A stretch of 64,000 bases of DNA. It comes from Candidatus Latescibacterota bacterium. GTDB lineage: Bacteria; Latescibacterota; UBA2968; UBA8231. The position numbers and the translations under genes are program-made. The stretch covers positions 384,001 to 448,000 of the forward strand of contig CBDFJF010000002.1 of assembly GCA_965248265.1 (NCBI GenBank). Reading direction: 5' to 3'. Positions 3,039-21,889 of this stretch are shown one piece after another. The notes beneath the pieces were generated by a model, which worked only from the letters and a program-made list of their open reading frames with translations, did no database searches and had not been told where the DNA came from. The stretch's first letter is position 1. Each line of letters starts with the position of its first letter.

Positions 3039-4322
3039 ATGGATACCCGATTAGCCCTAGCAATCGCTCTGGCTTCCACAGCACTCATTGCCTGTAGTGG
3101 AGGCAGTGACAAGACACCCGTCGGCTCTGTCGTCACAGACGATCAGCCGCCACTGTCGGACGAGACTCCAATCGGATCAAAACCCGGTGATGCTTCTGCA
3201 GATCAGAGTGATGTGCCGAACGCAGATGAACAGCCTGCGCCACCGGCCACCGATGTCGAAACGGACATCGGTACAGAGATTTCACTGTCTCCCTACGGAG
3301 CGAATTCACCCCTTCAGGGAAGCACGCTGGACCTTGATACCTTCCCGATCTCGGGAATCGTTTCCGGGGGCGTTCCAAAGGACGGCATTCCGGCGCTGAC
3401 CAATCCAGCGTTCGTCGGACCCGATGAGATCTCCTTCATGGCTGAAGACGATCTCGTCCTTGGACTGGTCGTGGGCGGAATCGCCCGGGCGTATCCGGAA
3501 AACATCGGTTGGTGGCATGAGATCGTGAACGACGAAATCGGCGGTCACTCGATCTCGGTGACTTTCTGTCCCCTGACCGGAACCGGCCTGGTGTTCGAGG
3601 CGGCTGACGGTGGTCAACTGGAGTTGGGTGTCTCCGGCCGTCTGTTCAACAACAACCTGGTCATGTACGATCGTCGCGACGGCGAGACTCTGTACCCCCA
3701 GATCTACTTCACCGGTGTCAGCGGCAGTCGTATGGGCGAGTCCTTGACCCTCCTGCCTGTCGTCGAAACAACCTGGCGGACCTGGAAACGACTGCATCCC
3801 GATACCGATGTAGTCGAAGGCGTCTTTGACGAGTCGCGCTACACGCGGTACCCGTACCGCAACTACCGCACCGATGACGACCACCTGATTTTTCCACTGA
3901 ATCCCCGCATCGTCGAGAATCTCAACCCTTACGCCGACGACTACGGAAGAAAGGACTCGATGCTGGGCGTGCGGTTGAATGGAGACCCCAGGGCATACCT
4001 GTTCGAGAAAATGGGTCAGCAGGCCGTCATCAACGACCAACTCGGTGGCGTCGATATCCTTGTGGTCTGGGACCAGCATAGTCATCTGGCCTTGCCGTAT
4101 GCCCGCGAGGTGGATGGACAGAGTTTGACCTTCGCGATCGAGGATGATGGGGGATTCCCATTCTCCCTCGTGGATGAACAGACGGGGAGTGTATGGGATA
4201 TTCATGGTAGGGCGATCGAGGGGCCCATGGCCGGTGCGCGTCTGACGCAGGTTCCGGCGCACAACAGCTTCTGGTTTGCGTGGGTGACCTTCTGGCAGGA
4301 CACGGACATGTGGACGCCGTAG
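3039..4322 (+). CDS. DUF3179-family lipoprotein
   Basis: GGAGG RBS before ATG 3039; lipobox LIAC; motifs GGVPKDGIPAL, WHEIVND, TFCPLTG, GVSGRLFNNNLVMYDR, FWFAW. Confidence 0.85.
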   Translation: MDTRLALAIALASTALIACSGGSDKTPVGSVVTDDQPPLSDETPIGSKPGDASADQSDVPNADEQPAPPATDVETDIGTEISLSPYGANSPLQGSTLDLDTFPISGIVSGGVPKDGIPALTNPAFVGPDEISFMAEDDLVLGLVVGGIARAYPENIGWWHEIVNDEIGGHSISVTFCPLTGTGLVFEAADGGQLELGVSGRLFNNNLVMYDRRDGETLYPQIYFTGVSGSRMGESLTLLPVVETTWRTWKRLHPDTDVVEGVFDESRYTRYPYRNYRTDDDHLIFPLNPRIVENLNPYADDYGRKDSMLGVRLNGDPRAYLFEKMGQQAVINDQLGGVDILVVWDQHSHLALPYAREVDGQSLTFAIEDDGGFPFSLVDEQTGSVWDIHGRAIEGPMAGARLTQVPAHNSFWFAWVTFWQDTDMWTP

Positions 4323-4368
4323 TTCGCTCACACCATTGAGCAACCGCATCCAAAATCAATCCATCACC

Positions 4369-4406
4369 CGGGCGTTGCTCCATGTGGAGCAACGCCCGAT
4401 GTTTTT
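4369..4406 (+). terminator. Intrinsic terminator
   Basis: Inverted repeat CGGGCGTTGCTCCA-TG-TGGAGCAACGCCCG followed by ATGTTTTT, downstream of the DUF3179 gene. Confidence 0.75.
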
Positions 4407-4463
4407 GCGCGATTCATGCGTCAACGCTACGGGTGCTCACCCAGAGAAACCAGGACTCCCAAT

Positions 4464-5733
4464 TTTGTCGTCATCGAAGCAACAGGCATTCGCCGATCTG
4501 GCCGTCAATGGTGGTCCCAAAGTCAGACAGCAGCCGTGGCCTGAGCGAGCTCTGATCGGCGATGAAGAGAAGGTCGCCGTGAATGAGCTTCTGGACGAAG
4601 TCGTGCGCAGCGGCGCGGCACCCTGGTACGATGGTCCAGTCGAAGAAGCCTATTGTCGAGAATTTGCCGAGTTCATGGGTGGGGGTTACGTCGACGCGGT
4701 CAATTCGGGCACCTCAGCCATCTACGTGGCGTTGCGGGCACTGGAGCTGGAATCGTTCACGGAGGTCATCGTCGGTCCCATCACCGACACCGGCGGAATC
4801 ATGCCGGTACCTCTATTGAACTGTATTCCCATTATCGCCGATTCTGCACCCGGTTCGTTCAACGTGGGTCCAGGCCAGATCGAGGAGTGCATCACTCCAT
4901 TGACGCGGGCGATCATCGTCGCTCACATCATGGGCGAGCCCGCCGACATGCCCGGCATCATGCAAGTGGCCGAGCGGCATGGCATACCCATCATAGAGGA
5001 TTGCGCCCAGGCACATTGCGCGCGCATCGATGAGCGACAGGTGGGTAGCTTCGGCAACATGGCCGCGTTCTCGACCATGGGCGGAAAACACCACTGCACC
5101 GGGGCCCAGGGTGGTGTCGTTTTCACCGCAGATGAGGATCTTTACTGGCGCTCTCGCCAGGCTTCGGACAGGGGGAAGCCGTTCGGTCTCAAGAGCGGGT
5201 CTACGAACTGCATCGCCGCCTTCAACTTCAACCTGAATGACTTTGCGGCCGCGATTGGCAGGGTCCAGCTCGCCAAGCTGCCCGGTATCGTCGCCCGTCG
5301 CAGGAGTGTGGTCGCCGACCTCAGCCAACGCTTCGCGGATCTGCGTTCCGTCGTTATCCCAGAACAGATCGCAGGGGCGGAGACCTCGTACTGGTTCTGG
5401 CGTCTGGGTTTGTCCGAGAAGGATCTCGCCTGCGACAAGATGACCTATTGCCGGGCGCTGCAGGAAGAAGGGTTGCTCCTGCGGCCGCAGTACGGCTTTC
5501 TGCCGCACACCTTCGAGTGGTTCACCGAGCGCCGTGTGTTCGGCACGAGCGGGTATCCCTGGACCGCACCCGAATACCAAGGTGACCGAGAGCGTACCTT
5601 TACCTGCCCGAACGCGAAGGAGGCGGATTCGCGGCATTTTCTGCTGACGGTTCTCGAAAGCTGGGGGCAAGAGGAAGTCGACGACATCGCCGCTGCATTC
5701 GAGAAGGTAGAACGCGCATATTTAAAATCATGA
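4464..5733 (+). CDS. DegT/DnrJ/EryC1/StrS-family PLP aminotransferase (start approximate)
   Basis: Motifs LAVNGGP, VNSGTSA, IEDCAQAH, FSTMGGKH, GGVV. The ORF-track start (4336) overlaps the terminator, so the true start is probably later. Confidence 0.88.
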
Positions 5734-14941: not shown

Positions 14942-15430
14942 TCAGTGATGATGATGGCCACCGGGCCCGTGAGCGTGTCCGTGGGACAATTCCTCTTCCG
15001 TCGCTGCCCGCACCTCCTCAACGCTGACATCGAAGTGCAGCACCTCACCAGCAAGCGGATGATTGCCGTCGACGGTGACCTCGTCCTCGGCCACGTCGGT
15101 GACGACGATGAGCTGGGTTTGACTATCTTCACCGGAAGCCTCGAATCGCATGCCGGGCTCGATATTGTCCACCGCTCCGAAGTCGCTGCGGGGCACGGTC
15201 TGGATGAGATCCTCATTGACCACACCATAACCATTTTCGGGTTGGATCGTGACGCTGAGTGAATCCCCCGCGCCCTTGCCGGCCAGCTCATTCTCGAGGC
15301 CGGGAATCAGATTGCCGGCGCCGTGCAGATAAACCAGAGGTTCACCATCATCGGATGAGTCGAGGATTTCTCCTGCGTCGTCGGTCAGTTTGTATTGGAT
15401 GGATACGACACAGTTCGCTGCGATCTTCAA
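14942..15430 (-). CDS. slyD: FKBP-type peptidyl-prolyl isomerase SlyD
   Basis: TTG start after AAGGA; YLHGAGNLIPGLE, DGNHPLAG, His-rich tail HGHAHGPGGHHHH. Confidence 0.92.
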   Translation of the reverse strand: MKIAANCVVSIQYKLTDDAGEILDSSDDGEPLVYLHGAGNLIPGLENELAGKGAGDSLSVTIQPENGYGVVNEDLIQTVPRSDFGAVDNIEPGMRFEASGEDSQTQLIVVTDVAEDEVTVDGNHPLAGEVLHFDVSVEEVRAATEEELSHGHAHGPGGHHHH

Positions 15431-15510
15431 GGTTTCTTCCTTTGTGGGAGGCGATTGGATGACGAGCGAGTGTGCGGAATACAGGTCCGTACCGCAACCG
15501 GCCAACCGGT

Positions 15511-15546
15511 AATAAAAGCCTCCCGAAGTCGCTGACTCCGAGAGGC
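15511..15546 (-). terminator. Intrinsic terminator of the 15575..16039 gene
   Basis: Minus strand GCCTCTCGGAGTC-AGC-GACTTCGGGAGGC (13 bp including G-U pairs), then TTTTATT. Confidence 0.75.
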
Positions 15547-15574
15547 CTGTTTTGGTTGGACGCCGGTCGGCGTC

Positions 15575-16039
15575 TCACTCCGCCGAGGCAAGCACCTCGA
15601 CGCCATCCAACACGTCAGTGATAGCGGGAGCCGGGTAGCACAACCGGACGATCCCCGGGAGCTCCTTTGCGTTCGAGCTGGTTGTCATTTCAAAGGCCAA
15701 CTGCAAGCAGGTATGGTACATCGGCATGCCCAGCGCGAAGGGATCGACTTGGGATTCGATCCTGGTGGTGCGAAGCTCGGCCAGGGGCCGCCAGGTTTGC
15801 TCCAAACCGGCCATCAGGTCCAGGAGGGCCTGCCAGCTGGAAAAGCCGTATTCACCGGCAAGCACCTGTTGCGCATGACGCAGTCCAAACGAGTCGGTTG
15901 CCGCAGCAGGCAGATCGGCAATCACGGCCTGCACACGCGCTACGGCCTCGGACTGACCGTCTTTGTGATCGTTGAGAAGCTGGCGAGCCTGCTTTTTGAG
16001 AACATCGAGATTGGGTTGGGGCGGGAGCTGACGTGACAT
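15575..16039 (-). CDS. Hypothetical protein with the N-terminal 'LPxxPNLxxLKKQAxxL...AQxxLAxEYGFxSW' domain often seen ahead of ankyrin/VOC domains
   Basis: MSRQLPPQPNLDVLKKQARQLL...LRHAQQVLAGEYGFSSW; GAAGGAAGG SD; own promoter and terminator. Confidence 0.75.
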   Translation of the reverse strand: MSRQLPPQPNLDVLKKQARQLLNDHKDGQSEAVARVQAVIADLPAAATDSFGLRHAQQVLAGEYGFSSWQALLDLMAGLEQTWRPLAELRTTRIESQVDPFALGMPMYHTCLQLAFEMTTSSNAKELPGIVRLCYPAPAITDVLDGVEVLASAE

Positions 16040-16165
16040 AGAACACCACCTTCCTTCACTAATGCCTGCTGTCCGCTCAGATCAGGCTGAAAGAAGGTCT
16101 ATGTATACTGCAGAAGGTGGGTTTAACCCTTGCCGCGGACTGGAGGCTCCCTTTGAGCACTGCCG
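16040..16165 (-). ncRNA. Candidate structured cis-regulatory leader RNA
   Basis: Complementary segments GUCCGC/GCGGAC, GGGUUAAACCC hairpin, GCCUG/CAGGC, and two anti-SD segments (CCACCUUC and ACCUUCUUUCA) matching UGAAGGAAGGUGG. Confidence 0.55.
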
Positions 16166-16167
16166 TC

Positions 16168-16196
16168 AATGTAGATATCGTGGTGACGGTGGACAA
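16168..16196 (-). promoter_or_regulatory. Sigma70-type promoter for the leader RNA and gene
   Basis: Minus strand TTGTCC-N17-TACATT. Confidence 0.5.
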
Positions 16197-16324
16197 GGTA
16201 AGAGTCAAAGGCTCATGCTCGATTGAGACAGGCAGCGGCGAAAGCAGCTGTGTCCACTGGACTTCCCGACCACCCACTCGATTTGTTATCTTTAACTCCC
16301 TGAGCAAGTTACGCAGGAAATCTG

Positions 16325-18664
16325 ATGGCGAAGAAATCACAAATGACGCAGGTCGGCAAGCGCAAGTTGGAGATCTCCAACCTGGACAAGCCGCTGTGGC
16401 CGGAAGACGGCATCGTCAAGGCCGAGCTGATCGAATACTACCTGAAGATCGCGCCGACAATTCTCCGTCACATCAAGGGCCGGCCGCTGTCCTTTGTGCG
16501 TTTTCCCGACGGCATTCACGGTGAAAGCTTCTTCCAGAAAAACAGGCCCGACTGGGCGCCGGCATGGCTGGAGCACGAGAAGGTCGGCGACGAGGACAGC
16601 GCTCTCGACTACGTCTTTGCCAGCGAAGAGGCCTCGATGGTGTGGATCGGCAATCACGCCTGCATCGAGCTGCATCAGATTCACGCGCGGCGGCCCCACT
16701 TCGACAAACCGGACTACATGGTCTTCGACCTCGATCCTCCGGAGGGATTTCCATTCCCTGACGTGGTCGAACTGGCATTCGAGTTGAAGGATCACGTCGA
16801 ATCCCACGGCTACCACACCTTCGCCAAGACCACGGGTCGCAAGGGTATCCACCTGGTTGTGCCGGTCGAGCCCAAGTGGTCATTCAGCGAGGTGTTTGAG
16901 ACTGCCAAGGCGATCGCCCAACCATTCGTGCGCTCCCACTCGTCTTCGACGACTCTGGCCATAAAGAAGGAGGCGCGAAAAGGGCGGGTTCTCGTTGACG
17001 TTTTCCGCAACCGTCCGGCGCAGACGATCGTCGCTCCCTACAGCGTGCGCGGATCTGCCGGCGCACCGGTGTCGATGCCGTTGACCTGGGAGGATCTGGA
17101 AGGTCTCGAGGACCCGCGCGAGTTCAATCTGCGCACGGTCTTTGACCGGGTCGTCTCCGAGGGCGATCCGTGGGAGGCACTGGCGGCGTACGCCGTGGCC
17201 CTGCACACCGAGCGCAAGGCGCCTGCCCGCAAGCGCGCCAGGACGAGCAAGTCGAGGACCTACAAGACCCCTGAACAACTGGAGGATTACGAGGCCAAGC
17301 GCGCCTTTGACAAGACGCCGGAGCCCAAGGCCGAGCTTGTCGGTGGGGGAGGTAATGCCTTCGTCGTCCACCGGCATCACGCCTCGCGTCTGCACTACGA
17401 TCTGCGCCTGGAAAAGGACGGGGCGCTACAGTCGTGGGCTATCCCGAAGGGTCTGCCACCACGTCCGGGTATCAAGCGCCTGGCGGTGAAGGTCGAGGAC
17501 CACCCGCTGGAGTACCTGACCTTCGAGGGCCGCATCCCCAAAGGGGAATATGGCGCTGGTCCGATGTGGGTCTACGCACACGGACGCTACGAGATCACCA
17601 AGGACAAGCCGGACAGCTTTTACTTTAGGCTGCAAAGCAAGGAACTGACGGCCGAATACCGGTTGATAAACACCAAGGGGAAGGATTGGCTGCTGGAGCG
17701 TCTCGACAGCCCGCAGGTCGACTGGTTGAACGACCAAATCGAGCCGATGCTGGCCGAAAGCCGGGATGAGCCACCTACCGGTGACGAATATGTCTACGAG
17801 GTGAAATGGGACGGCATTCGAGCCATGGTCGCTCTCGAGGAAGGGGAGATCCGCATTCGCACACGCAGCCAGCGCGATGTGACTACCTCATTTCCGGAGT
17901 TGCAGTCGGCGGAGCTCTTCCGCGGCGCCACAGGGCTGTTCGACGGCGAGATCGTCTGCCTGGATGATGCCGGCAAGCCGGTGTTCACGGATGTGATGGG
18001 GAGGCTCCAGGCCAAGGGGGAGCATGGCATCGCGCGATCGATGGGGCGCCATCCCGCGGTCTGTTACCTGTTCGATTGCCTCTACCTGGATGGCCGCCCG
18101 ATCGTCAATGAACCGATGATGCGCCGGCACGAGTGGCTGGAGAGTGCCATCAAGCCGGATGGGCCGTATCGAGCCAGTGAAGTGGTCGAGGAAGGGGGTC
18201 AGGAGCTGTTCGAGGCTGCCAAAACGATCGGGATCGAGGGGATCGTGGCAAAAACGAGGGACGGCTCGTATCTTCCGGGAAGGCGCAGCGACACCTGGCT
18301 CAAGGTCAAGGTGCGCCAGACTATGGAGTGCCAGGTTCTGGGCTATACCAGTGGAAAAGGGGACCGACTGAGCCACTTTGGTGCCCTGCATCTGGGGGTC
18401 TCAAACGGGGAAAACGGGGGCATCAAGTACCTGGGCAAGGTCGGTAACGGCTTCGACGACAAGTTGCTGAAGTCCATTCACTCGCAACTCAAAAAAGTCA
18501 AAGAGACCAAGCGCCAGATCAGCCAGAAACCAGCGGACGACGCTGAGACCACCTGGATCGAGCCCAACCTGATCTGCGAGGTGCAGTTCGCGTCGCTGAC
18601 GAACATGGGAACGCTGCGAGAGGCCGTGTTCCTGAGAATGCGACCTGACCTCGACGAATTCTAA
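16325..18664 (+). CDS. ligD: NHEJ DNA ligase D (POL-PE-LIG domain order)
   Basis: Primase-polymerase motifs SNLDKPLWP, VFDLDP, KTTGRKGIH; phosphoesterase HHASRLHYDLRLE; ligase EVKWDG, EGIVAK, WLKVK. Confidence 0.95.
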   Translation: MAKKSQMTQVGKRKLEISNLDKPLWPEDGIVKAELIEYYLKIAPTILRHIKGRPLSFVRFPDGIHGESFFQKNRPDWAPAWLEHEKVGDEDSALDYVFASEEASMVWIGNHACIELHQIHARRPHFDKPDYMVFDLDPPEGFPFPDVVELAFELKDHVESHGYHTFAKTTGRKGIHLVVPVEPKWSFSEVFETAKAIAQPFVRSHSSSTTLAIKKEARKGRVLVDVFRNRPAQTIVAPYSVRGSAGAPVSMPLTWEDLEGLEDPREFNLRTVFDRVVSEGDPWEALAAYAVALHTERKAPARKRARTSKSRTYKTPEQLEDYEAKRAFDKTPEPKAELVGGGGNAFVVHRHHASRLHYDLRLEKDGALQSWAIPKGLPPRPGIKRLAVKVEDHPLEYLTFEGRIPKGEYGAGPMWVYAHGRYEITKDKPDSFYFRLQSKELTAEYRLINTKGKDWLLERLDSPQVDWLNDQIEPMLAESRDEPPTGDEYVYEVKWDGIRAMVALEEGEIRIRTRSQRDVTTSFPELQSAELFRGATGLFDGEIVCLDDAGKPVFTDVMGRLQAKGEHGIARSMGRHPAVCYLFDCLYLDGRPIVNEPMMRRHEWLESAIKPDGPYRASEVVEEGGQELFEAAKTIGIEGIVAKTRDGSYLPGRRSDTWLKVKVRQTMECQVLGYTSGKGDRLSHFGALHLGVSNGENGGIKYLGKVGNGFDDKLLKSIHSQLKKVKETKRQISQKPADDAETTWIEPNLICEVQFASLTNMGTLREAVFLRMRPDLDEF

Positions 18665-18676
18665 CGAATTCATTTG

Positions 18677-18700
18677 CGAGTTCGACTCCTGTCGAACTCG
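18677..18700. repeat. Perfect hairpin between ligD and ku
   Basis: CGAGTTCGAC-TCCT-GTCGAACTCG. Confidence 0.7.
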
Positions 18701-18753
18701 TGACAGGTGACTCACCGTTAGAAGGGATTTTGCGTGACTAAAAGGAGTGAACC

Positions 18754-18801
18754 ATGAGAAGGACGAGTTCTGCGAACTCGTTTCATAGGAGGGTACTATG
18801 A
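18754..18801 (+). CDS. Candidate 15-aa uORF (MRRTSSANSFHRRVL) coupled to ku
   Basis: AAGGAG SD ahead of ATG 18754; its TGA overlaps the ku ATG (ATGA). Confidence 0.35.
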   Translation: MRRTSSANSFHRRVL

Positions 18802-19685
18802 GAAGCTTATGGAAGGGTCACATTCGGTTTTCGATGGTGACGATTCCTATTCGTCTCTACACCGCCGTCGACAGCGGGGCCACGGTCAGCTTTAATCAGC
18901 TGCACAAGGAGGACAATGGCCGCGTCGGCTATGACAAGAAGTGCAAGAGCTGTGGCGAGGCGCTCAGTGCCAAGGATATCATCAAGGGCTACGAGTATTC
19001 TCCGGATGAGTACGTCGTCGTCGAGGATGAGGATCTGCAGAAGCTCAAGCTGAAGAGCACGAAGATCATCGAGATCGAAGGCTTCGTCGATACCGAAGAG
19101 GTACACGAAACCCTATACGACACTCCGTATTACGCAGGTCCGGATGGCGAGGTTGCGGTCAAGGTCTATGCCCTGTTAAACGAAGCCTTGAAGGCCAGTG
19201 GCAAACTCGGTGTCGGGAAGGTGGTCATGCGTGACCGTGAGGACATGGTGCTGATCGGCCATCACGAAGGTGGTCTGGTCATCTACAAGCTGAGGTATCC
19301 TCAGCGAGTGCGTGCGATCGGCGAGGTTCCGGGGATCGATCAGACCGAGGTCAACTCCGAGGAGTTGAAGCTGGCGCAGAGCCTGGTAGACTCGATGTCG
19401 AAGCCGCTGGCCGACATGGAGCTCAAGGATACCTATAATGATGCCATCAAGGACCTGATCAATGCCAAGGTGGAGGGCCAGGAGATTGTCATGGCGGCCG
19501 AAGAGGTCAAGCCGGTCGTCGACATCATGTCCGCTCTCAAGGACAGCATCGAGCAGGCCAAGGAAGAGAAGAAGCCGATGAAGAAGGCGGCCGGTGAGAA
19601 AGCCGCAGCCAAGAAAAAGGCGCCAAAAAAGAAGGCAGCTCCCAAGAAGGCCAAGGCCAAGGCCAAGGCCAAGAAGGTGGCGTGA
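18798..19685 (+). CDS. ku: NHEJ protein Ku with Lys/Ala-rich C-terminal tail
   Basis: MRSLWKGHIRFSMVTIPIRLY, IIKGYEY, VVDIMSALKDS; basic tail. Confidence 0.95.
   Translation: MRSLWKGHIRFSMVTIPIRLYTAVDSGATVSFNQLHKEDNGRVGYDKKCKSCGEALSAKDIIKGYEYSPDEYVVVEDEDLQKLKLKSTKIIEIEGFVDTEEVHETLYDTPYYAGPDGEVAVKVYALLNEALKASGKLGVGKVVMRDREDMVLIGHHEGGLVIYKLRYPQRVRAIGEVPGIDQTEVNSEELKLAQSLVDSMSKPLADMELKDTYNDAIKDLINAKVEGQEIVMAAEEVKPVVDIMSALKDSIEQAKEEKKPMKKAAGEKAAAKKKAPKKKAAPKKAKAKAKAKKVA
19647..19670 (+). repeat. (AAGGCC)4 repeat encoding KAKAKAKA in the Ku tail
   Basis: Read directly from the sequence. Confidence 0.8.
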
Positions 19686-19719
19686 GTGCGCGTCATATCG
19701 AACAATAGATCATGAGATC

Positions 19720-20325
19720 ATGGCTACCATCCTAAAATTCCCCGCGCAGGCACCGACCAAGTTCGGCTTCAAACGGGTCAGTCCGCGCCGGCGCAAAGAT
19801 GATGAAAACCAACTGGATCTGTTCGTCCCCAATGAGGGAAAGATCCTGCGGCTACCGACTGGCCTGAGCGCCTTCGAAGAAGCCCTGTCGATGGAGGAAC
19901 GGGGTGATGAGCAGGCGGCAATCGAGATGTACGGCAGGGCCATAACGGAAGGGGATTCGGTCGCTGATTCGCACTGCAACCTAGGTGTGCTGCAGTCCCA
20001 GCGCGGTGAGACGGGCACGGCCTTCGAGTCCTTCAAGAACGCGCTCAAGCAGGACCAGCAGCACTGGGAGACGCATTACAACATCGGCAACCTCTACTTC
20101 GATACAGAAGACTACCGTCCTGCCCGGTTGCATTACGAGCTGGCAGCCGAAGTCCAACCGGAGTTCCGCAACATCTTCTACAATCTGGGGCTTGTCCTGG
20201 CCATCCAGGAGGAGGTCCATCCCGCCATCGAAGCGCTCAACCGCTATCGCGAGCTCGCCCCAGACGGGGAAGCCGGAGCGGCTGCAGATCTACTCGAGAC
20301 CCTGAGGAGGTCGCTGGAGGGATAG
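19720..20325 (+). CDS. TPR protein with N-terminal QLDLF motif, downstream of ku
   Basis: ATG 19720; TPR units SHCNLGVL, THYNIGNLY, IFYNLGLVL. Confidence 0.85.
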   Translation: MATILKFPAQAPTKFGFKRVSPRRRKDDENQLDLFVPNEGKILRLPTGLSAFEEALSMEERGDEQAAIEMYGRAITEGDSVADSHCNLGVLQSQRGETGTAFESFKNALKQDQQHWETHYNIGNLYFDTEDYRPARLHYELAAEVQPEFRNIFYNLGLVLAIQEEVHPAIEALNRYRELAPDGEAGAAADLLETLRRSLEG

Positions 20326-20329
20326 ACGC

Positions 20330-21889
20330 TCAGGCCTGCATCTGGCGTTTCAGTTCGCGCTCGTACTCGCCGAGGATGTTGCCGTAGACATCCTCGCTCA
20401 TGAACCCGGTCACCCGCAACGACAATGTGTTTTGCTGCCTTCCCGCCGGGACGTAGTGGCGCTTGTCGGTCCCCTGAGGGCGGCCCCACAAATGGCCGTC
20501 ATGCGGCGAGACGTAGTCGAGCCGCCGCTTGGTGCTATCCGTTCCGGGTCCGAACAGGGTTATCAGATGAGGGGAATAAAGGTCATCGGTATGCCACATG
20601 CTACCAGCCTCGTAATCCGTCATTTCGATCTCTCCACCAGGACCGACGATGGAACCACTGAGCGCCACGTAGGCTCGGCGGGGGGCGATCACGTCTACCT
20701 GTGAGTTACACAGGGCGATGATGTAACGCAGGTAGGGACCTTCATGGGCATGGCCGGCCAGCCGGCTGATGACTTCAGGGCGTGTTTTGGCGCTGAAACC
20801 CTCAGTCTGGGTAATGCAGTATTCGGCTACCGCTACTGGAATTACCTTGTCGAGGTCATGTTCGTCGAGGACCTGGGCGATGGCGTTCCCCGCCCGCATT
20901 CCAGCCGCGGTCCGGGCCTCCTCCAGCGTGCGATAAAACTCTGACTTGAAGGTCCTCTTTCTGTCGTCATCGGGTTGATCAATGATCATTACCAGCGCCG
21001 GCTTGGTGGCAATGCGTATGGCATCGGAGTGAAAGAGGACTATCTGAGTCAGGGAAGGCAGGAAGTCGCTGATTTCCGAGATCTGCGAAATCAGGTGAGC
21101 ACCACTTACCTCGTGGCTTTCATCAGCGCCGGGCTCCTCATTCCACAGACCGCAATCGTGCATGAAGCCACCAAGAAAAATCTCCGCAAGGTCCCGTCGG
21201 CACCGAGCGTTATCCTCCGTATCCTCGCCATTGCCAGCCGTGTCTACCGACTCGGAATCTTCCGATTTGAGCAAGGCCTGCGAAGCCAACTCCGTTGCGA
21301 ACACGGCGACGTTGAGGGCGTGCTGCACCGTGCGCGTGGCCAGGTCGTGGCGGGCGATCAGATCCATGATCAGGGTATTGCCAATCAGGTACTCGTCGAT
21401 GGCCGTGCGCACAGCCGTGTGGAAGTGCCGGATGCGTCCTTCCAGTTCCTGCAGGTTTTCGACGACCTCCCGGTTGCGCAGGGCGGACATCGTAAAGGCG
21501 CCGCCGCCGACGATGCGGTAGATCTCCGTGGCTTTGCGGGCGACGTCCTCCGCTTTGACGACGACTTCCCGGGAGATCTCCGTGGCCTTGCGGGTGCGTT
21601 CGCGCGCCGCCGAAACCGGCTCCGCCAGATCGGGAGGCGTTCGGCTGGCACCCCGTTCCTGGCTGATGACGACGTCCACGTAGGTGGGCCGGCGGCCGGC
21701 GGCCGGGTTGCGCTGTTCGAGCCAACTGAGGTGTCGCTCTGTGATTTTGGCATTGACGGCGATGAATACGGATCCGCCTGGACCGTAGATGTCCTTGGCG
21801 GCACGCACGGCGAGGCCCATGTCCTTGCCCCTGGCTTCCTGCAGGATGACACGCAAATCCCGAGTGCTGATGCTGATAGCGCTGCTCAT
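20330..21889 (-). CDS. Divergent HD-domain protein (HD-GYP-like N-terminus, no GYP motif)
   Basis: HALNVA, GGFMHDCG, HEVSGA; N-terminal KDIYGPGGSVFIA. Confidence 0.6.
   Translation of the reverse strand: MSSAISISTRDLRVILQEARGKDMGLAVRAAKDIYGPGGSVFIAVNAKITERHLSWLEQRNPAAGRRPTYVDVVISQERGASRTPPDLAEPVSAARERTRKATEISREVVVKAEDVARKATEIYRIVGGGAFTMSALRNREVVENLQELEGRIRHFHTAVRTAIDEYLIGNTLIMDLIARHDLATRTVQHALNVAVFATELASQALLKSEDSESVDTAGNGEDTEDNARCRRDLAEIFLGGFMHDCGLWNEEPGADESHEVSGAHLISQISEISDFLPSLTQIVLFHSDAIRIATKPALVMIIDQPDDDRKRTFKSEFYRTLEEARTAAGMRAGNAIAQVLDEHDLDKVIPVAVAEYCITQTEGFSAKTRPEVISRLAGHAHEGPYLRYIIALCNSQVDVIAPRRAYVALSGSIVGPGGEIEMTDYEAGSMWHTDDLYSPHLITLFGPGTDSTKRRLDYVSPHDGHLWGRPQGTDKRHYVPAGRQQNTLSLRVTGFMSEDVYGNILGEYERELKRQMQA

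Follow-up and report, generated by a model that had tools for sequence, protein, structure and literature searches.

Bacterial nonhomologous end joining (NHEJ) is generally presented and investigated as a minimal system of two proteins. Abstracts up to 2026 describe it as the work of Ku and LigD, and neither the main text of a comparative study of NHEJ (PMC7719229) nor that of a review of LigD (PMC8656161) mentions a tetratricopeptide repeat (TPR) protein or a link to the sliding clamp. Likewise, the text of a 2024 review of the beta clamp (PMC11139829) nowhere uses the terms NHEJ, end joining, or LigD. A full-text search for literature on bacterial NHEJ or LigD together with a clamp motif, the sliding clamp, or TPRs returned no description of such a protein, and no paper was found that combines a clamp-binding motif with the word tetratricopeptide. 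Here, we describe a 64,000-nucleotide stretch of DNA from a Candidatus Latescibacterota bacterium (assembly GCA_965248265.1, contig CBDFJF010000002.1, positions 384,001 to 448,000 of the forward strand; hereafter the window), in which ligD and ku are followed by a third gene that encodes a 201-aa TPR protein, P0001, with a predicted beta-clamp-binding motif. The P0001 family is real, well defined, strongly conserved, and unnamed, and it forms the third gene of one widespread Ku/LigD module. With a probability of roughly 0.58, we propose that P0001 is a non-enzymatic accessory of this end-joining subtype that tethers Ku/LigD to the beta clamp.

The three genes form one string on the + strand, with ligD at 16325..18664, ku at 18798..19685, and the open reading frame (ORF) of the TPR protein at 19720..20325. 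LigD is a 779-aa ligase D with its domains in the order primase-polymerase, 3'-phosphoesterase, ligase (Pol-PE-Lig). Its Pfam matches are LigD_Prim-Pol at residues 32-283 (E 1.3e-83), LigD_N at 349-448, DNA_ligase_A_M at 474-662, and DNA_ligase_A_C at 683-775, and it scores 479.6 bits against TIGR02776 (cut-off 373.2). The 295-aa Ku has a Lys-rich C-terminal tail, matches PF02735 (E 6e-44) and TIGR02772 (273.8 bits versus a cut-off of 150), and is the sole Ku match in the window's genome. Judged by these family matches, Ku is a bona fide, standard bacterial Ku and LigD is a three-domain enzyme. Between the ku stop at 19685 and the ATG of the TPR gene at 19720 lies a gap of 34 bp. The translation of the TPR gene begins MATILKFPAQAPTKFGFKRVSPRRRKDDENQLDLF, and Gln31 to Phe35 are encoded by 19810-19824. 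A longer ORF for the same gene would start with GTG at 19594 and overlap ku; the homologues, whose first residue is the aligned Met, give it no support.

The model of the P0001 monomer, predicted by AlphaFold2 (AF2) with a 49-row alignment, reveals a flexible arm followed by a compact solenoid, with a mean predicted local distance difference test (pLDDT) of 83.9. The N-terminal arm, residues 1-50 (19720..19869), is predicted to be disordered and without secondary structure. Its pLDDT falls below 50 at residues 1-6, 30-32, and 34-45, and its net charge is +5 over residues 1-46. Residues 51-200 (19870..20319) are predicted to fold into nine confident helices with pLDDT 92-98 over most of their length, which corresponds to about 4 to 4.5 TPRs. 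This domain is acidic, with a net charge of -17 in P0001; across 159 members of the family, the median is -11. Pfam assigns TPR_1 (E 3e-18) and 10 further TPR models and no other families, and the best Foldseek matches are designed consensus TPRs (E 1e-7) and the TPR part of O-GlcNAc transferase, all of them generic TPR. With its tandem 34-residue repeats arranged as a solenoid, P0001 is a TPR repeat protein. The first-pass annotation, which was made from the letters of the window, had placed a TPR gene with a basic N terminus and about four repeats 34 bp after ku on the same strand, with QLDLF codons at 19810-19824; its coordinates are exact and its description of the protein agrees with the model.

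Within the arm lies the predicted beta-clamp-binding motif QLDLF, residues 31-35 (19810..19824). The text of the clamp review gives the consensus as QL(S/D)LF, the canonical pentamer as Q-phi-x-[L/M]-[F/L], and the hexamer as Q-phi-x-[L/M]-x-[F/L], and it names QLDLF as the strongest-binding clamp peptide (PMC11139829). In an alignment of 49 of 91 sequences (P0001 and 90 matches), Gln31 and Phe35 are invariant and Leu34 is at least 90% conserved. For a wider census, the proteins of 80 related loci and the 91 sequences were de-duplicated on their last 120 residues, which left 167 nonredundant members. The published definition is fitted by 159 of these members, 157 as the pentamer and two as the hexamer, and the variants found in the family (QLNLF, QMNLF, QLSLF, and QLHLF) obey the published rules. 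The remaining eight comprise two members with QLNIF, two N-terminally truncated fragments, and four that have lost the motif. In the window's genome, the pattern Q[LM][SDN]LF is found in only nine of the 10,893 ORFs that are 150 aa or longer, and one of these nine encodes MutS; QLDLF in P0001 is more than chance. The MutS protein (G000 C2:663711-666374, L142) has its QMDLF past domain V, at residue 830 of 887, and the other seven ORFs apart from P0001 encode transporters, enzymes, or proteins without a Pfam match. MutS is listed among the clamp partners in the review text, which also places the clamp motif of Hda within a disordered N terminus (PMC11139829). In the form of its motif, in the predicted lack of structure around it, and in its conservation among orthologues, P0001 resembles a clamp client.

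We then consider the arm in complex with the clamp itself. The single DnaN of the window's genome (387 aa, 30-row alignment) was modeled together with residues 1-60 of P0001 (49-row alignment). The complex scored 0.68 (0.70, 0.66, and 0.68 in separate runs), and all three controls scored 0.00. Of 80 solved complexes, 58 reach the mark used to judge such scores, as do two of 110 mismatched pairs, proportions that are approximate since self-made alignments were used. At least 53% of contacts are shared between the runs, and the confident contacts of the arm are confined to residues 29-35 (ENQLDLF). To locate these contacts, DnaN was aligned to a 366-residue solved clamp (6amq_A), and pocket residues were taken as named in the review (PMC11139829). 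The 20 contacting DnaN residues of the model include 14 of the 18 pocket residues that the review text names, that is, Thr172, Gly174, His175, Arg176, Leu177, Pro242, Val247, Asn320, Val344, Val360, Met362, Pro363, Met364, and Arg365. Gln31 is modeled near the residues of subsite II, and Leu34 and Phe35 near those of subsite I, which matches the description in the review text (PMC11139829). In the model, the motif thus sits in the pocket between clamp domains II/III and the C terminus. A pass of this kind denotes likeness to solved clamp-peptide complexes and is not proof that P0001 binds.

The link between the TPR family and end joining is a matter of gene order and co-occurrence. The locus analyses cover the best 80 of at least 595 stretches matched in species-representative genomes. 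In 75 of these 80 loci, which come from many phyla, the gene immediately upstream on the same strand encodes Ku, and the spacing between the Ku stop codon and the TPR match has a median of 40 nt and does not exceed 100 nt in 61 of the 75. Forty of the 80 loci also have LigD upstream of ku, with 57-73% identity to the LigD of the window. Clustering of all ORFs in these loci that reach 90 aa (2,034 in total) gave only three widely shared clusters, the TPR protein (80 loci), Ku (74), and LigD (38). Of the five loci without an upstream Ku, two (L082 and L084) are cut by a contig end, one (L050) holds only frameshifted ligD remnants, and two (L057 and L083) have no Ku within 7 kb upstream of the TPR gene.

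The same association is seen at the level of whole genomes. Of 121 genomes from the window's phylum, its own included, 22 carry a member of the TPR family and 19 a Ku gene, and every one of the 19 Ku-bearing genomes is among the 22. The surveys for the TPR family scored at most 15 or 26 first-look candidates per genome, so an occasional match may have been missed. The ku and TPR genes are adjacent in 16 of the 19 genomes, on separate small contigs in one (G077), and unlinked in two; in G060 and G085, which belong to one genus, ligD and ku stand together and the TPR gene elsewhere, and both have been kept. Three genomes have the TPR family and no detectable Ku. One of them (G098) has its match at a contig edge, and the other two (G059 and G069) beside ligD remnants. 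These two and L050 are of one genus, in which the TPR gene is intact and only frameshifted remnants of the ligD N terminus lie upstream (L133 ~3170-4615 for G059 and L134 ~3150-4610 for G069); the L050 gene carries QLNLF. In this genus, the module may be decaying, or the TPR protein may have a Ku-independent role. By its conserved linkage and co-occurrence, the family belongs to a Ku/LigD system, and to one Ku/LigD subtype only. As side observations, G098 has two TPR-family matches in tandem at the start of a contig (C22:670-1802), possibly a duplication, and in two genomes Ku lies within long open frames of 1093 aa (G106 C125:8466-9008) and 806 aa (G061 C1:5146477-5147019), which may be LigD-Ku fusions or merely long GC-rich open frames.

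Outside the window's phylum, Bacteroidota (201 genomes) have Ku in 21 and the TPR family in five, all adjoining Ku, whereas Verrucomicrobiota (121 genomes, Ku in nine) and Nitrospirota (121 genomes, Ku in 23) each have the family in one genome only, the seed genome. Among the Ku-bearing genomes other than the seeds, the family is thus present in four of 20 Bacteroidota, none of eight Verrucomicrobiota, and none of 22 Nitrospirota. Seven Nitrospirota genomes with matches at E <=1e-20 were set aside, as these matches cover profile positions 68-214 only and were counted as generic TPR proteins, not as family members. The first-pass annotation had spoken of a three-component end-joining system; this holds for a conserved ligD-ku module and does not extend to bacterial NHEJ generally.

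Comparing the Ku and LigD proteins, it becomes clear what the TPR family accompanies, namely LigD of the Pol-PE-Lig order and one distinct Ku clade. The Ku proteins of TPR-bearing loci share 50-97% mutual identity across phyla (median 63.7%), whereas those of 18 TPR-less loci (10 Bacteroidota and eight Verrucomicrobiota) are only 24-39% identical to them, with a maximum of 39.1%. In the 18 TPR-less loci, LigD is mostly of PE-Lig-Pol order or split, and some have a ligase piece only or no LigD match. All 674 plasmid Ku records are less than 60% identical to the window Ku, and the TPR protein has no match at E <=1e-8 in 72,556 plasmid records. The window Ku and LigD are 54-74% and 57-73% identical, respectively, to those of related loci, most of which are in other phyla, whereas DnaN is 36-50% identical within the window's own phylum. 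This difference hints that the three-gene module has spread horizontally. In Nitrospirota, two tandem ku genes were observed in nine of the 23 Ku-bearing genomes (e.g., G478 C59:14491-15833 and G487 C10:107590-109000), an arrangement that suggests a heterodimeric Ku, and a further genome (G463) has two ku genes on separate contigs.

The family itself has so far gone without a name. A word-indexed search returned 90 proteins of ~200 aa, and the only name on them is "tetratricopeptide repeat protein". P0001 scores above no NCBIfam cut-off (the best is MamA, 54 bits versus 200), matches none of the PADLOC families, which gives no sign of membership in an anti-phage defense system, and in the ESM Atlas falls only into generic clusters of tetratricopeptide repeat proteins; among curated families (Pfam, NCBIfam, and PADLOC), nothing beyond generic TPR describes it. 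A count by profile search of 1.84 billion proteins proved unusable, since giant multi-TPR proteins dominate it (8,503 at E <=1e-30). In species-representative genomes, a relative is encoded in at least 572 of the 595 matched stretches listed. The best 80 loci are metagenome-assembled genomes labeled Gemmatimonadetes, which include the closest three, Bacteroidota (Ignavibacteria, Chitinophagales, Cytophagia, and Rhodothermales), Nitrospirae/Thermodesulfovibrionales, Verrucomicrobia, KSB1, Krumholzibacteriia, Calditrichaceae, "delta proteobacterium", and one Chloroflexota. Most of the carriers belong to environmental lineages that have not been cultured, and the protein may have been overlooked for that reason.

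In addition to QLDLF, the arm contains three further conserved motifs. ILKFP at residues 4-8 (19729..19743) has Phe7 and Pro8 at least 90% conserved in the 49 sequences, and a loose regular expression for it matches 159 of the 167 members. The basic motif KFGFKRV at residues 14-20 (19759..19779), followed by RRRK, has Gly16 and Arg19 at least 90% conserved and is matched in the same loose way in 160 of the 167; it possibly contacts DNA or a partner. The third is ILRLP, of the form I-L-x-L-P, at residues 42-46. Some members carry additional domains according to precomputed Pfam labels. Three of them (P0064, P0065, and P0081) have an added MerR-type helix-turn-helix (HTH), labeled PF13411 in all three, PF00376 in P0064 and P0065, and PF13518 in P0081, and another (P0029) has an added DUF433 (PF04255). 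In the alignment of P0064, the HTH stands between the KFGF motif and QLNLF, and this placement hints that the arm of the family acts adjacent to DNA.

After the TPR protein, Ku, and LigD, the next ORF clusters in the 80 loci are an Abhydrolase_11 protein (14 loci) and a DUF72 protein (13 loci); in L060 (1764-3321), genes for both are found immediately upstream of ligD and run on the strand opposite to it. In the window, a convergent gene on the - strand (20330-21889) ends 4 bp past the TPR ORF and encodes a 519-aa protein with a weak HD-domain match (E 0.0013, below the cut-off); NCBIfam and PADLOC scans assign it to no family. A 57%-identical copy of this protein occupies the same place in a Gemmatimonadetes locus (L049), and C-terminal fragments match likewise in L009 and L023. 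Upstream of ligD on the - strand, a 154-aa ORF (15575-16039) has no match in Pfam or PADLOC and no relative in the 80 related loci. A scan of 15400-20800 for promoters and terminators gave one promoter-like and three terminator-like sites, which were not above shuffled sequences, and none of them falls in the gap between ku and the TPR gene.

Of the mechanisms considered, a tether fits these observations best. The flexible basic arm, through QLDLF, would dock into the hydrophobic pocket of a beta clamp on the same DNA, while the acidic solenoid of ~4.5 TPRs, a surface of the type that holds an extended peptide of another protein, would grip LigD or Ku, the latter perhaps by its Lys-rich tail. 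Such a tether would unite the clamp with the Ku/LigD machinery at a break, and the purpose could be recruitment to replication-born breaks, aid to LigD synthesis or ligation, or removal of the Ku ring. An adaptor between Ku/LigD and the clamp had been proposed in the first-pass annotation. Its clamp side gains from the conserved motif and from the modeled pocket and is supported in silico, as is the conserved linkage of the gene to ku and ligD; its Ku/LigD side draws on gene order and co-occurrence, which suggest that the TPR domain binds one of the two proteins. A more far-reaching proposal, which we advance tentatively, is that these lineages physically wire their end joining to the replication clamp, with the TPR tether holding Ku/LigD at beta clamps left on the DNA. 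Such wiring might help locate breaks born of replication, or make the clamp available to the polymerase or ligase step of LigD; it might also allow an arriving replisome to strip Ku rings that are topologically trapped after ligation. To our knowledge, no bacterial mechanism for removing trapped Ku rings after ligation has been described.

Several points weigh against the tether. On the clamp side, the pLDDT of the arm in the complex is at least 41 and under 50, which leaves the fold of this partner uncertain, and the pass of the model may reflect memory of solved structures, because many clamp-peptide complexes have been solved and the pair is textbook-like. Moreover, four full-length members (L026, L031, L037, and L078) have lost the clamp motif and kept the other arm motifs, so that the motif is not indispensable everywhere. 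This loss also fits a Ku/LigD cofactor that does without the clamp, in which the arm motifs would dock on Ku, LigD, or the groove of their own TPR domain and the protein would act as an assembly or bridging factor or as a chaperone within the NHEJ complex. The three further arm motifs, which are not clamp motifs, would suit such a cofactor, as would the block of residues 11-20, whose pLDDT of 75 in the monomer model stands above that of its neighbors, as if this segment were docked on the TPR domain. However, QLDLF is exactly the highest-affinity clamp consensus, variation within the family follows the rules for clamp motifs, and the model puts residues 29-35 in the clamp pocket against three controls at 0.00; we therefore consider a clamp-free cofactor quite unlikely. 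On the Ku side of the tether, no Ku was found in G059 or G069, and a Ku-independent role is conceivable because the TPR gene is intact beside mere ligD remnants in L050, G059, and G069, and because L057 and L083 have no Ku within 7 kb upstream. A search among longer proteins for a Ku-TPR fusion gave two generic TPR proteins and no fusion, which is weak evidence. A passenger, that is, a generic TPR gene that adjoins ku and has no part in end joining, would be in keeping with how common TPR proteins are, and the window's genome alone has 34 stretches matching P0001. It is nevertheless highly improbable in view of the Ku upstream of the gene across phyla, the family's presence in every Ku-bearing genome of the window's phylum, the five Bacteroidota members that all adjoin Ku, and the retention of the gene even where it has moved away from ku (G060 and G085).

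The direction of the effect is a separate matter. Rather than recruiting Ku and LigD, the tether might restrain them, with the acidic TPR domain sequestering the basic Ku tail or mimicking DNA and the clamp-anchored protein keeping Ku/LigD off one-ended breaks at forks, where end joining would be harmful. The strongly acidic TPR domain and the conserved Lys-rich tail with which the Ku of this clade ends would suit such an inhibitor, and whatever speaks for clamp binding and for linkage to Ku counts equally for it. The computed results fit activation and inhibition alike. On the other hand, the Ku proteins of TPR-less Verrucomicrobiota also have long basic tails, so that a basic tail is not specific to TPR-bearing systems. 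We regard restraint as unlikely. "Replication-coupled" end joining, a term of the first-pass annotation, should be read in this light, since a restraint on Ku at forks would fit the data as well as a recruiter does.

Overall, this Ku/LigD subtype probably has a third, previously undescribed partner. If so, at least one widespread NHEJ subtype is not minimal, with a relative of P0001 in more than 570 species-representative genomes, and the tether would be the first connection of end joining to the replication clamp. Were end joining indeed wired to the clamp, the two-protein model would have to be extended by a third core component and by a connection with replication, which it now lacks. The system also lends itself to experiment, as the protein is small, its function hinges on a single motif that can be mutated in the tether model, and the partners are known.

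Compared with the canonical system of a Ku homodimer and LigD, as in Mycobacterium, Bacillus subtilis, Pseudomonas, and Sinorhizobium, the window has the same essentials, a genuine Ku and a LigD with all three domains, encoded in a single string of genes. It differs in the conserved third gene after ku and in its distinct Ku clade. In eukaryotes, APLF, XLF, and PAXX are small non-enzymatic scaffolds that dock on Ku through short motifs in disordered tails. These motifs bind a Ku80 domain, and bacterial Ku is without that domain. P0001 resembles these scaffolds in its short linear motifs that would assemble an end-joining complex, and no relation to them in sequence or fold was found, as it matches TPR families only. 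Closer at hand, a gene annotated as "tetratricopeptide repeat protein" on pSymB of Sinorhizobium meliloti (L151 6876-7961, CP130050.1) starts at the ku stop, with xth downstream. The protein has 361 aa with TPRs at 206-343 (Pfam), its N-terminal 200 residues are unlike P0001, no QLxLF is visible, and no BRCT domain was found in it by Pfam at E <=0.01. Its orthology with P0001 is not supported, as a search with it back into the window's genome ranks P0001 19 of 32 (E 3.7e-5). By this comparison, the S. meliloti gene is an analogous third gene beside a different Ku subtype and is not specifically related to the P0001 family.

On the clamp side, the nearest counterparts are the clients Hda, MutS, Pol IV, and Pol V. 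Like them, P0001 has a QLxLF-type pentapeptide in a predicted unstructured region that reaches the same pocket in the model, and the motif of Hda is N-terminal too, according to the review text (PMC11139829). P0001 differs in that it lacks an enzymatic or AAA+ domain and consists, beyond its arm, of a TPR solenoid. In function, a parallel is ImuB of the mycobacterial mutasome, which published abstracts present as a catalytically dead adaptor that links a repair enzyme to the beta clamp (PMC10421592 and PMC11791113). Whereas ImuB has a Y-family polymerase fold and serves translesion synthesis, P0001 is a TPR protein of an end-joining operon, and Pfam gives no homology between the two. What they would share is the principle, a non-catalytic protein predicted to join a repair machine to the beta clamp.

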